Source: Eledone cirrhosa (lineage: Eukaryota). Taken from it: 64,000 bases of DNA. The stretch lies in NCBI GenBank assembly GCA_964016885.1, contig OZ024754.1:24118001-24182000 (forward strand), in the 5' to 3' direction. Under the pieces are notes generated by a model. That model saw nothing but the letters and a program-made list of their open reading frames with translations, was not told the DNA's origin and made no database searches. Positions 27,007 to 61,217 of this stretch are shown here, one piece after another. Within the stretch, counting starts at the first letter, position 1. Each line of letters opens with the position of its first letter. The translations under genes were made by a program, and so were the position numbers.

Positions 27007-28441
27007 TATACTTTATCTTATTTCATTGTATTGCATTTAACCATATGTAAGCCTGTATTTTGTATATCATGCCGCATACATAACCCACACCAAAAATCAC
27101 ACTAACCATGACACACCATATTAATAACCACATATACCCCGTCTCAACATCGCCCACCTCAATGAACTTATTGTATTGTACTCCATGTAACCATTTCTAA
27201 GCCCGCATTTGTATATCATGCCGCACGCATCACCATCACCACCACCAAAATTCACATCAACATACACACCTCATCGTTGCAACATCGTATTAGATCGGTA
27301 TCCTATGATACGTTCTACCTTGCAATCCACAATGACAAGGGACCTTGTAAATACAATGTCGATCATATCACACCATCGCCACCACCACCACACCACACAT
27401 CGTCATATGCCTACCATAAACACCTACAACCTCATCCCCCCATATTCCCGCTGTCTACCCTAACCTACAACCCCACGCTAAATTCGACCTTGTAATTGTA
27501 CTGTCGCACGCACACACAACCACAGCCACCACTAGATACATCCAAATACCTCAACAATCATTATCATTAACATCATCAACACATATCACCCTCACTCCCA
27601 GATCGACTGTATTATAGACCCCCCAACCCCCGTCTGCCTTACCCTATAACACACCGTAACCTCTGATCATGTAATCATCTTGTCGAACACATCATCCCAG
27701 CACACCACCATCACCATGTCCACAACACACATCGCCGTACGTTCATAAACACCTTCTAACCGGTATTCGATCCTGTATATATATTTTTGTCCCTCACAAC
27801 TCCACCACCACCACCACCACCACAAAACACAACTCCATACTTCACCAACACCAACAACGCACCCCCACCCCACTCCCAACCAACAATAGCGTGTGTGTCG
27901 GTGTGTAAATATTCTTACACAGACGGACGTATGAGTGTGCGTGCGTGTACGCATAGTTATTGTATGTGTGTGTGTGTATGTGAGCGCAGGTGCATACATG
28001 TGTGTATGTGAGGGTACGTATCTGTATATATATATATATATATATGTGTATGTGTATGCGTATGTGTATGTGTGTGTGTCTATATGTATGTGTATGTATG
28101 TGTGTATATGTGCACGTCTACATATAGGTATATGGGTGAATCTGACTATATGTGTAGGTGAGCTCATGTGCGTGCATGTATGTGTATATGTGCGTGTATA
28201 TCTGTGTGTTGTCTGTACATGTGTGTGTGTGTATATCTATGTATATATATATACATAGAGAGAGAGAGAATTAGTACATCTACCAACATATGTGTACAGA
28301 TGTACACTCATGCTAGCAAATATATAAGTTATGTCTTAGTACCTATGTGGTTCTATGCAGGTGAATGCAGAACAATTATATGAAAGACGTAAAATAAGAA
28401 AATTTTAAAAATTAAAAATCAACTTACTTACTAAAATTTTC

Positions 28442-28527
28442 ACTCCAACTAATTAGTTTCTGTAATGGGATAAATATAGTTACATAATATATATAACTAT
28501 AGAGAATTCATTACGTCATCAGGGAGT
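28442..28527 (-). ncRNA. Hammerhead-like motif, extended stem II (mirror copy)
   Basis: Reverse complement of 28792-28877 with few differences. Confidence 0.8.
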
Positions 28528-28791
28528 CTATTCTCAGCTAAGTTCCCAGGCAATGCGCGGACACTAGGAACCCATATAAAAATAATAATTCAGTAGATGG
28601 AAAGAAGCTAGCGTGGACTAAATTCCGGAGCACTGAAAAAATTTCACGAAAGAATCAATCACGTGACACCGAGGTTAATCAGTTAGTGCTCCGGAATTTA
28701 GTCCACGCTAGCTTCTTTCCATCTACTGAATTATTATTTTTATATGAGTTCCTAGTGTCCGCGCATTGCCTGGGAACTTAGCTGAGAATAG

Positions 28792-28877
28792 ACTCCCTGA
28801 TGACGTAATGAATTTTCTATAGTTATATATATTAGGTAACTATATTTATCCCATTACAGAAACTAATTAGTTGGAGT
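28792..28877 (+). ncRNA. Hammerhead-like motif, extended stem II
   Basis: actcc-CTGATGA-c gtaatg..cattac a-GAAA-ctaattag-TT-ggagt. Confidence 0.82.
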
Positions 28878-29795
28878 GAAAATTTTAGTAAGTAAGTCAA
28901 TTTTTAATTTTTAAAATTTTCTTATTTTACGTCTTTCATATATATATATATATATATATATATATGTATATATATATGTATGTGTGTGCGTATATATATG
29001 TGTGTGTATATATGTGCTTGAGTATACGTGAGTGTGAGTCCAGGTGCCCATACCCATATGTATGTATGGGTATATATATGTGTACGTATGTATGTAAAAC
29101 ACCTTCTACATTGCCTCTCCCCTTCCCCTACTCCGTCGTTCGCCACCCCCAACGATACTCCCCCACTCTCCATATTCGCACGCGCACACGCACATACATG
29201 TGTGTACATATACATATGGCCGTGTGTGAGCGTGTGTCGATATGTGTGGGCATGGATGTGCGAATGTGTTGTGTGGCAAGTGTGTTTATACAACAATATG
29301 TGTGCACATATATACCTATATGTGTGTGTGCGTATAGGTATATACAAAGCATCTGCCAGACGATGAGCGACTAGCTATGTATCTAGGTAATGACCTTGAC
29401 GCCACCAATACATCCGCCACACCACCACAAACGCCGCTACCATAGACAGCGGCACCAATACCACACCCCCACACACACGCCAACCCGTCTACTGACAACC
29501 CACTAACCTCATACCACAGCCCATCCCACTAAGCAACCATAACCACCACCATATCATGACATCCACACCCACACATACTCTACACGCCAAGGCCAATCAA
29601 CCACCACCACACTACAGCCCATCTCATCCACCCATCGTCACCAACATCTCACCATCACACCCACCCCCATATACACTACAGGCCAGTACATCGCCTTGAC
29701 CCTTCCCACCAATCAAAACAACTCATTTTGTCAAACTCTTGAATATCTGACTTTATCACATAGCATGTATTTCATTTTCTTATAGCATTTTGGGA

Positions 29796-29882
29796 AGGTC
29801 CGTCGAGCTGCGGATTATTGAGTCGGGTAGGATCGATATAGTTCGAGCCTCGAGCTGATCAGTGGCGAAACGCGCGTCACCT
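29796..29882 (+). ncRNA. Hammerhead-like motif, core CCGUCGA, extended stem II
   Basis: aggt-CCGTCGA-gctgc..gtggc-GAAA-cgcgcg-TC-acct, then AATAAA. Lies downstream of a C/A-rich tract. Confidence 0.65.
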
Positions 29883-58307: not shown

Positions 58308-58382
58308 TTGAGGTATATGAAGAGGTTCAATGTACTTGGAAAGTCGGCCAATTGAAGGCATTCCAAAGTTTTTAAAAGGGTC
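58308..58382 (-). CDS. PCCA: PCCA exon (most 5' one found in the window)
   Basis: [29 protein letters not shown] bounded, 75 bp. Confidence 0.95.
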
Positions 58383-59349
58383 CTAAACAGAAACACAGAT
58401 AAAATGTTGAAATAAAACATTCAAAGTAAATAAATAAAACATTTTTCAATATAAAATATGTTTCTTTTGTTCCTTTACATCCAAATCAAGACAGAAAGAC
58501 CTAATGTAAGTGAGATGCAGAACCAAACTTCCTCACTGGTCTGTCTGGGAGGTCATTAGCTCTGATTCATAACTGACTTGGTCTATGTAGACCCGTCCAA
58601 CTCTTGCTCGCAGGGAAAACGGATGTTAAACGATGATGAGGACACTATCTCAATTGTATCTATAAACCTGTAATTTGTAATCGAGTCATAGGGGTGCCAT
58701 AGTGACATATGGCATGTCTTGGGACTTTCTTAAACCTAGCAGAGCTCATACTCTCTCTAGAGCTGAAACTTTGAGCACTCTGCATCTTTTTATACAGCTG
58801 TTGTCCTTCATAGCTGTATAAAAAGGTAGCCATTGAATGAGCAGGTCTAGGAAGACTTGCAATGAGTTAATAAAAGCTGACTTTGCACAATTACACCTCG
58901 TTAAGGCGATGACACATGATCTCTGGCGCTATGTAGTCTTGTAGAAGACCCCTCCCTGTTATATGTGAGATGGGTCAGGCTCTTCGTATACATACACACA
59001 CATATACCTACTCACAATCATACATACAAAGACATACATACACACATATACATACACACATACATACATCACACACAAACATAAATACATACACACATAC
59101 ACACACAAACGTTTTGACTCATAAAACAAGAATTAAACATTTGAAATAGAATAAAAATAATTTAACCTACTTTCTCAACTAGTATTTATAGTGAGCAACT
59201 GGAATTAGGATACATATTTCAAATACACACACAGTTTCAACATTTTATTTATGGAATATATCGGGTAAATACAGTTTAACAGAAAGTTATAGATATATGT
59301 ATATATATCAACAATGTATGTATGTGTGTGAGTATATATATATAATTAT

Positions 59350-60445
59350 ATCACCATCATCATCGATTAACGTCTATCTTCCACGCTAGCATGGGTTAGA
59401 CGTATTTGTCCCATTTAGAGGCAAGCTGGGTAGGGTGATCGTGTCTCGCACATATAGGAGAGTTTCTGGCTGGTTTTCTATAGCTGGATGCTCTTCCTAA
59501 CGTCAATCCCATTGACAGTGTGTGTTGGGTGCCTTTTGCTGTGTCTTTTACATGTCCACTTTAGAGTGTGGGCTGGTTTTCTATGGCCGGATGCCTTTCT
59601 TGTTGCCAACCACATTTACAGTGTGTGCTGGGTGCTTTTTGGTGTCTCTTTTACACATCCACTTTACAGTGTGGGCTGGGTGTTTTGTGGTACCATTATA
59701 ATAAACATATATATATATATATATATATACACAGGCACATATCATGATAATGATATACATATATATATTTGTATGCATATACATATTCCATATACGTAAT
59801 ATACATACACATATCATACATATACATACACACTTCATATATATACACATAAATATATCATCAATATTTACAGTGTGGACTGGGCACCTTTATCATGTCA
59901 CCGACACGACCAGTTTACAATGGGGCCAGGGCACTTTTGTATTGGGACTAAGGAGGAGGGAGGAAGCTTGGGGAAAAATGTGGACAGGGTAGTAGGAGAG
60001 GTATGGTTACCGCTGAGGGAGGTGAATGAGAAGGGAGAAGGTTGAGGAAGGTGTTGCCTACTAGGTATAAGCCTCATCCTGAGAATAATAGAGGGTGAGT
60101 CTTCCGTAAAACTGCATAGTTCCAGAGATCACAGTCTTGAGTCATTGCCTTTGAGAGGTGTAATTGTGCAAGGTCAGCTTTTATTACCTCATCCCAAGTC
60201 TTCCTAGGCCTGCCCACACCACAGCTACCATCGACTTTGAGCACTCTGCACCTTATTATACAGCTGTCATCCTTCATACACATCACATGTCCATACTAAC
60301 GCAATCTCCTCTTCTGCATGCAACAACTGATCCCTCTTATGCCTAATTTCTCGTGCAGTATATTCATACTTTCCCATTCACGTATATTGCTATTGCACAT
60401 CCAGCAAAGCATGGAGGCTTCATTTCTTTCCAATCTCCGCAGGTC
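59350..60445 (-). mobile_element. 5'-truncated RTE LINE
   Basis: RRLERNEASML, GRPRKTWDE, plus a 3' UTR ending in (GAT)n. Confidence 0.8.
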
Positions 60446-60478
60446 TCACTGCTGTGCAGCTATATATATATATATATA

Positions 60479-61217
60479 TAAAGAATTAGTATATCTACCA
60501 ACATATATATACAGATGCATACCTATCCTAGCAAATATATAGGTTTTGTCTTAGTAACTTTGTGGTTCAATGCAAGGGGATGCAGAACGTAAAATAAGAA
60601 AATTATAAAAATTCACTTACTTACTAAAATTTCACTCCAACTAATTAGTTTCTGAAAGGGAATAAACATGGTTTCCGATTGTTATAATTGTTCTGCATCC
60701 CCTTGCATTGAACCACAAAGTTACTAAGACAAAACCTATATATTTGCTAGCATAGGTATGCATCTGTATATATATGTTGGTAGATATACTAATTCTTTAT
60801 AATTATCTCCAAATTATTTTGTTGAGCAAAAATTTGTCAAAACTACTGCTATGCTTCATAGTAATAGCCAGGCTACTGTCTTATTAGCACCCCCACTCCT
60901 CACTGATTGACCTCGATGTCACGTGATTGATTCTTTTGAATTCGCCACCGACTAAGTAGGCAGTGATTTTTTCAATGTCCTGGAATTTAGTCCTCGCTTG
61001 CTTTTTTCCATCCACTGAATTATTTTTGTATAAGTTCCCTGTGTCCACGCATTGCCTGGGAACTTAGCTGAGAACAGATCTCCCTGATGACGAAAGGATA
61101 TTTCTCCATGTTGTTCCAATCGGAAACCATGTTTATTCCCTTTCAGAAACTAATTAGTTGGAGTGAAATTTTAGTAAGTAAGTGAATTTTTATAATTTTC
61201 TTATTTTACGTCTTTTA
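60479..61217 (+). mobile_element. ORF-less hammerhead element: complete monomer of about 535 bp (60683-61217) preceded by inverted fragments
   Basis: 60479-60587 mirrors 60689-60798 and 60588-60680 mirrors the monomer 3' end. Homologous to 28268-28940. (AT)n flanks. Confidence 0.85.
61080..61163 (+). ncRNA. Hammerhead-like motif, extended stem II
   Basis: ctcc-CTGATGA-c gaaagg..cctttc a-GAAA-ctaattag-TT-ggag. Stem II covaries with 28792-28877. Confidence 0.85.

Follow-up and report, generated by a model that had tools for sequence, protein, structure and literature searches.

We have discovered a non-coding repeat unit of 535 nt with a hammerhead ribozyme motif in a 64,000-nt stretch of the genome of Eledone cirrhosa (GenBank assembly GCA_964016885.1, contig OZ024754.1, positions 24,118,001 to 24,182,000 of the forward strand; hereafter the window, in whose own numbering all coordinates are given). 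The unit has no open reading frame (ORF), is present in high copy number and carries the hammerhead near its 3′ end. We consider it likely to be a non-autonomous Penelope-like element (PLE) that would be copied into (TA)n microsatellites by the reverse transcriptase (RT)-endonuclease of a coding PLE. It is likely an intermediate between PLE ends and animal retrozymes, and its hammerhead is predicted to be self-cutting. The parts are all known; the structured long tail, and its combination with the PLE footprint and a hammerhead, are what is new.

PLE insertions are described as partial tandems with an inverted, 5′-truncated copy, a tail of 30-40 nt at one end and a bias towards (TA)n (PMC8557442, PMC3846280; these and other publications are cited for the portions that were accessible). 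Work on the anole PLE places two internal RT start sites within a stem-loop and shows that they bound the tail; its main template in vitro was uncut RNA (PMC11167929). The hammerheads of PLEs have a short helix I, a long helix II opened by a G-C pair, an extra base after A9 and a palindromic helix III (PMC4209133).

Two insertions with a Penelope-like footprint

The unit occupies 60683-61217 (35% GC). Its longest stop-to-stop frame is 65 aa and its longest ATG-led frame 37 aa, head-to-tail join included, which bears out an earlier sequence-only reading of a unit of about 535 nt without an ORF. That reading had taken 28268..61217 as a single feature; there are instead two insertions of ~0.7 kb, 32 kb apart, locus A at 28267-28938 and locus B at 60477-61217. 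BLAST and nhmmer detected no further copies of the unit in the window, tblastn with the PLE proteins of the window gave no match to it, and no transfer RNA (tRNA) from which a tRNA or short interspersed element origin could be argued is present in the window. The components of the two loci are as follows.

60683..61217, + strand: locus B direct arm, a complete non-coding unit of 535 nt that comprises a head, a short interior, a conserved block, the hammerhead and the 3′ end
60587..60681, − strand: locus B inverted arm, from the 3′ portion of the unit, 95/95 identical to 61117-61211
60477..60588, − strand: locus B tail, formed by the head of the following unit behind a join from which 16 nt are missing, with (TA)n at the tail end
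60461..60479: (TA)n, left edge of locus B
61218..61238: (TA)n, right edge of locus B
28685..28938, + strand: locus A direct arm, 5′-truncated, last ~255 nt of the unit
28381..28686, − strand: locus A inverted arm, the 3′-terminal ~310 nt of the unit, 253/258 identical to the direct arm
28267..28380, − strand: locus A tail, consisting of 114 nt of head behind an intact join, with GA/TA microsatellite at the tail end
28939..28981: (TA)n, right edge of locus A
60899..60937, + strand: conserved interior block, 35/39 identical between A and B, with a CACGTG box, candidate promoter

Both loci share one layout, in which (TA)n is followed by an inverted arm with a ~115-nt extension past its junction, a direct arm and (TA)n again. 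The direct arms of A and B stop at one shared position, the unit end, and the inverted arms cross the join and halt 114-120 nt into the head, again at one shared place. The end-to-start join on the minus strand, which had been noticed from the sequence at first reading, is intact at 28381/28380 in locus A; a second join lies in locus B at 60588/60587, with 16 nt lost. All four insertion edges carry (TA)n, one of them in GA/TA form. The arms of one locus are 98-100% alike (253/258 in A, 95/95 in B), whereas the two loci are ~85% alike and differ at 15 of 114 head positions; thus, both arms of an insertion derive from one template lineage. In locus B, a single case, the direct arm halts no more than 2 nt from the join. 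Neither arm starts at the predicted hammerhead cut site, and the window holds no tandem array of two whole units.

An inverted 5′-truncated copy adjoining a direct copy, and a tail of fixed end on one arm (114-120 nt), are found at both loci. An inverted arm with a tail in a (TA)n target is the published PLE footprint, and the arrangement with an inverted arm, the constant end point of the tail and the insertion into (TA)n together identify the likely mobilising machinery. These three features, like the tail hairpin described below, had gone unremarked in the sequence-only reading. Since a join of this kind is what any tailed PLE insertion shows, it is no evidence for a circle.

Coding PLEs occur in the same window. 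The element at 20303-23741 has the same layout as the unit, with a 55-nt tail and (TA)n edges. Its ORF and a second ORF at 2728-4557 both resemble RT/GIY-YIG clusters; Pfam RVT_1 was matched by the PLE ORFs of the window only below the cut-off, and a solved-structure search returned only weak RT matches. By the motifs given in PMC8557442, read by eye, the element at 20303-23741 is Neptune/Nematis-like (Cx4CxxC) and ORF 2728-4557 Hydra-like (DKT, CxCx5C). A minimal hammerhead-like core lies at ~23495 in the former, of which a further copy is found at 15752-16415; its tail and that of the unit share an 8-mer at their ends, which is only a lead. The Hydra-like PLE is young (copies 94-99% alike) and in a nested inverted arrangement at 1741-8955, 16421-16670 and 18800-20232, with a hammerhead-like stretch at ~5510-5545 that has CAGAAGA instead of a core and a diverged relative at 33392-33976 (−). 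A 58-nt tail proposed for the PLE at 1741-5628 was dropped, since position 5520 has the appearance of a break left by rearrangement. In the accessible material, the ends and hammerhead of the octopus Naiad and Hydra-1 elements in print differ by eye from those of the unit, and these elements were rejected as a match. Five short motifs had no match to an autonomous partner in the accessible PMC8557442 supplement, where line breaks can hide matches.

Conserved RNA structure in the hammerhead and the tail

A motif scan for type I hammerheads returned three matches in the window and none in 100 shuffles: 28797-28872 (+), 28522-28447 (−) and 61084-61159 (+). The scans agree with the first description of copies that keep the core and stem I, and add the minus-strand copy, which it had not listed. 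Positions of the hammerheads and of the hairpins in the head and tail are given below.

61080-61083/61160-61163, + strand: hammerhead B stem I, with the core at 61084-61090
61092-61097/61139-61144, + strand: hammerhead B stem II with distal hairpin; palindromic stem III at 61149-61158
after 61159 (GUU), + strand: predicted cut of hammerhead B
28792..28877, + strand: hammerhead A direct, predicted cut after 28872
28442..28527, − strand: hammerhead A inverted, predicted cut after 28447
60739..60788, + strand: 22-pair G-U-rich hairpin in the head/tail, ending ~10 nt short of the tail end, candidate RT-start signal
28324-28275, − strand: the same 22-pair hairpin at the locus A tail
60690..60713, + strand: small 8-pair head hairpin, A/B differences in loops only

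The core as defined in PMC3088659 (C3 U4 G5 A6 N7 G8 A9, G12 A13 A14, A15-U16, H17, with three stems) is present in all three copies. A and B have the same core, stem I and stem III, whereas 27/39 positions are identical inside stem II. Stem III had been described as a ctaattag stem kept in the copies; it is indeed kept, but consists of 3 pairs and an AAUU loop within a 10-nt perfect palindrome. Stem II reads GTAATG/CATTAC in A but GAAAGG/CCTTTC in B, so that the two compensatory pairs reported earlier do stand, each changed on both sides, as does the exchange of the distal hairpin, which differs between A and B. Four substitutions placed over the 12 stem II sites leave all six pairs Watson-Crick in 0.3% of arrangements, or in 1.2% if G-U is admitted (exact enumeration, post hoc, one comparison of A with B). 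Among the loose ends listed from the sequencing runs described below, we found a further stem II 5′ arm, GTAAGG, that lies between the A and B forms and has its partner arm outside the listed sequence, a distal hairpin GACAGTT/AACTGTC where A has TATAGTT/AACTATA, and another distal hairpin closed by cUUCGg.

The pair at 10.1-11.1, directly adjoining the core, is absent: an unpaired C and A stand at the base of stem II, between the core and the first G-C pair. Mismatches at this position are known in active or PLE-linked variants (PMC3088659, PMC8557442 supplement). Canonical hammerheads have a helix I of 6 bp, a helix II of 4 bp and loop contacts (PMC4209133); a stem I of 4-5 bp and an extended stem II place the unit outside this canonical, retrozyme-type form.

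The tail is the second structured part. It folds better than shuffles on the ribozyme strand (z -3.1 and -3.2) and not on the opposite strand (z +0.5 and +0.6). When the fold is predicted from the B sequence only, 6 of 15 A/B substitutions lie in its pairs and none disrupts a pair, against a random mean of 4.2 broken (P 0.003). The tail hairpin has 4 invariant G-U pairs, and 30/30 pairs are held on the ribozyme strand as against 24/30 on the other. Selection on RNA structure, proposed earlier for the hammerhead, is therefore supported and extends beyond it to the tail hairpin.

Energy models were used to predict the monomer and dimer states of the hammerhead. In all three copies, the active monomer fold is predicted to lie 2.5 kcal/mol above an inactive one, with the core mostly mispaired and an active stem III pair probability of ~0.12, and the double-hammerhead dimer is predicted to lie 7 kcal/mol below two free monomers. 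On these predictions, the hammerhead would be trapped inactive as a monomer and active when two copies pair through the 10-nt palindrome. Dimer-only activity, if correctly predicted, implies that the hammerhead would cut only multi-unit transcripts. Dimeric PLE hammerheads have been described before (Lunse et al., as cited in PMC6765202).

A dispersed family and its possible origins

Of 16 listed public sequencing runs, none of them given as RNA, four were examined: X1 and X4, two runs of unrecorded kind from one study of organism A; X5, from organism B; and X14, restriction-site-associated DNA (RAD) of organism A. Sequences on the unit comprised 2863, 49 and 53 contigs in X1, X4 and X5, respectively, and 6595 reads in X14. 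Joins from 61212-61217 back to 60683 were present in all four runs, and 28 X1 contigs had (TA)n behind 60801. The unit belongs to a family that is present in high copy number in two or more organisms, and the join exists in DNA. Depth had a peak at 60898-60951, over the conserved interior block, beside the much higher depth at the head and the 3′ end; summed depth was not taken as copy number. The interior is crossed by contigs with 11-17 differences from organisms A and B (records 2, 3, 11, 19-21), a 587-nt X4 contig (record 10) connects the head, the conserved block and the hammerhead region, and, among those listed, loose ends at 60819 and 60891 lead into that short interior as well. Its recurrence in diverged copies from two organisms indicates that the ORF-less form itself spread and diverged, rather than arising by one deletion. 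Read ends in X14 at 60686, 60794, 60942, 61018, 61155 and 61194 all lie within 3 nt of AATT sites and were treated as RAD restriction ends, not as biology. No two consecutive units each with a hammerhead were seen in the window, and the run contigs are too short for a genome-wide answer. Motif scans for hammerheads gave none in viral contigs; six loci in metagenome contigs had 18-23-nt matches with no core upstream and were set aside as chance.

The mechanism we propose begins with a master locus of at least 1.2 head-to-tail units, which would be transcribed. The PLE protein would bind the unit RNA, probably at the tail hairpin, and nick the (TA)n target on both strands. Reverse transcription may then start internally, both at the join and at the tail end, and the two cDNAs would be joined head to head, giving a direct and an inverted arm that are mostly 5′-truncated. 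The template of both insertions had an uncut hammerhead upstream of the join, which points either to unprocessed multimeric RNA, as for the anole PLE, or to a re-ligated circle.

Several observations weigh against this explanation. A coding parent with the same ends is possible elsewhere in the genome, as searches covered the window and the four runs; within the window, six regions of other elements, aligned on both strands as candidate helpers, did no better than shuffles (best 4/100). X1 and X4 may share the source study of the window and would then not be independent. Interior depth in X1 was 3.5-14 thousand as against 300-740 thousand at the ends (20-100 times lower), although a low interior depth is expected from 5′ truncation and divergence. 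None of the contigs listed spans the whole unit; these observations concern listed pieces, with 341 loose ends and 3007 pieces beyond them. The tail is ~3 times the published 30-40 nt. The covariation comes from two independent sequences, A and B; the reverse test with A's own fold gave 2 broken pairs (P 0.039), and a three-row pair-count control for the tail was not significant (168/500 shuffles). Taken by itself, the hammerhead region does not fold better than shuffles in B (z +0.34) and does so only weakly in A direct (z -1.63), and its C-A mismatch at the stem II base would fail the filter of PMC3088659. Rfam hammerhead models had no match at gathering score in the window and none at E <= 10 on 60900-61300, for which the 41-nt insert within stem II may be the cause.

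It is conceivable, although in our view doubtful, that the unit is a true retrozyme without long terminal repeats (LTRs), whose tandem arrays are transcribed, whose hammerhead frees 535-nt monomers and whose ligated circle is the template of the PLE RT. This explanation departs from a non-autonomous PLE only in the template and the arrays. It draws on an ORF-less, low-GC, hammerhead-bearing unit with a precise join, on shared-template arms (98-100% alike within a locus, ~85% between loci) and on a circular unit fold better than shuffles (z -4.9, 40 shuffles); the last is offset by 62% of bases being paired against 57% in shuffles, so that the circle is not rod-like. Predicted dimer-only activity would protect a circle, but 8 of 9 tested Xenopus retrozyme dimers gave no cleavage (accessible part of bioRxiv 10.64898/2026.07.22.740005). 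The single direct arm that halts <=2 nt from the join, in locus B, is like one lap of a circle, and transcription start there fits equally. A PLE tail alone suffices for the join, no arm has its start at the predicted cut site, and canonical retrozyme hammerheads are of another type. The sequence-only reading had favoured a tandem or circular retrozyme-like element: the ORF-less unit with a join is indeed a family, but the join is explained by a PLE tail, the window has no two-unit array, and the hammerhead is of the PLE type (PMC4209133).

The repeat might otherwise be the pseudo-LTR (pLTR) and tail of a coding PLE elsewhere. Locus A would then be a truncated remnant of the ordinary kind, and locus B an uncommon copy with an internal deletion. 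We regard this as unlikely. All features of the layout are ordinary for PLEs, whose hammerheads in genomes mostly sit in truncated copies (PMC4209133), locus A has no interior, and the depth deficit noted above falls in the interior. Against this, several contigs from two organisms contain the short interior at 7-13% difference from B, the loose ends listed at its borders lead on into that same interior, and the share running into unlike sequence was 0, 0.03 and 0.10 in the three contig runs. Neither a coding remnant nor a match to the PLE proteins of the window was found in the unit.

A by-product at the DNA level, in which fold-back repair of imperfect palindromes in an AT-rich repeat made the pairing and the hammerhead is a dead relic, is very improbable: the stems are AT-rich and TA-rich, PLE insertions make palindromes, a C-A mismatch adjoins the core and few sequences were tested, but the invariant G-U pairs and the pairs held on the ribozyme strand, the folding of that strand only, and the invariance of the core and of stems I and III beside a diverged stem II interior all speak for RNA.

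Relation to known elements and significance

Non-autonomous PLEs are already in print (PMC8557442), as is the descent of retrozymes from PLE ends (bioRxiv 10.64898/2026.07.22.740005, PMC7229834). PLE mobilisation of animal retrozymes has been proposed from shared hammerheads, co-occurrence and sequence kinship, with the mechanism left open in the accessible text of these last two sources. In the literature searched, which did not extend to Repbase, Dfam or most subscription papers, neither the family of the unit nor a retrozyme with a tail and inversion was found; the supplements of the bioRxiv report, outside this scope, may list similar elements. The accessible text of an octopus repeat paper (PMC13282606) contains neither 'ribozyme' nor 'hammerhead'.

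The closest systems are the endonuclease-positive (EN+) PLEs Neptune, Nematis, Hydra and Poseidon, which share the inverted 5′-truncated arm, the tail on one arm and the (TA)n target (PMC8557442, PMC3846280). Their pLTR hammerheads, like that of the unit, are of type I near the 3′ end, with a short stem I, a stem II opened by G-C after an extra base and a palindromic stem III (PMC4209133), and the stem-loop at the RT start of the anole PLE may be the counterpart of the tail hairpin (PMC11167929). The unit is not an autonomous EN+ PLE, as it has no RT and GIY-YIG ORF. It also differs in its tail of ~115 nt, in a stem II that encloses 41 nt with an exchangeable hairpin, and in an extra base on both stem II sides, of which Hydra-1_aJap is a U-U case (PMC8557442 supplement); relative to the hammerheads of PMC4209133, the added base is an unpaired A before G12.

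Animal non-LTR retrozymes share with the unit a non-coding sequence, low GC (here under 45%), a type I hammerhead, a head-to-tail join and co-occurring PLEs (PMC7229834, bioRxiv 10.64898/2026.07.22.740005), and 535 nt falls within their 51-972 bp range (same bioRxiv report). Unlike them, the unit shows no two-unit array in the window, is longer than the 170-400 nt invertebrate circles and has a PLE-type hammerhead (PMC7229834); it also has the full PLE insertion footprint, which is absent from the parts of the retrozyme descriptions examined. We do not class it as a retrozyme because no arrays were seen, the circle is putative and the hammerhead deviates from the canonical form. MRC1 and other non-autonomous Chlamys PLEs are also ORF-less PLE derivatives with pLTRs and head-to-tail copies. 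They are, however, algal, mostly lack canonical hammerheads and have a 3′ end that resembles a known autonomous partner (PMC8557442), for which the unit has no equivalent in the window.

The window is AT-rich and dense in microsatellites and retroelements. A bacterial promoter scan of it was at chance level, the method not being apt for animal DNA. A second hammerhead family, with covarying stem I and a palindromic CTAG stem III, lies at 14003-14033 and 15072-15102 (+) in a permuted repeat (13750-15381) with blocks of ~170 and 245 nt and a TA-rich end; this may be a further short derivative of a PLE. The region 1454-1719 is a nearly perfect palindrome (266 nt, 98%) that adjoins (TA)n. Other elements include a long interspersed element-type RT ORF of 752 aa with a PHD-like finger at 61595-63853 (−), decayed relatives of it at 54325-55720 and 60099-60446, and a mariner-type transposase fragment at 25984-26610 (−). 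A dispersed repeat with 47-48-nt tandem subunits occurs at 50834-54138, 59350-59686 and 61247-61573, one copy adjoining locus B on its right.

An ORF-less unit with the whole PLE footprint ties retrozymes to PLEs by insertion anatomy. For the in vitro PLE assay of PMC11167929, the unit could serve as a minimal substrate of 535 nt whose stem II varies naturally and whose covarying hairpin, specific to one strand, lies beside the inferred RT start. A bolder and doubtful possibility is that a dimer-gated hammerhead makes a circle and that the covarying tail hairpin directs the PLE RT to two fixed starts, giving every copy a tail and an inversion. If true, this would be direct evidence for PLE mobilisation of animal retrozymes, with the RNA signal named.

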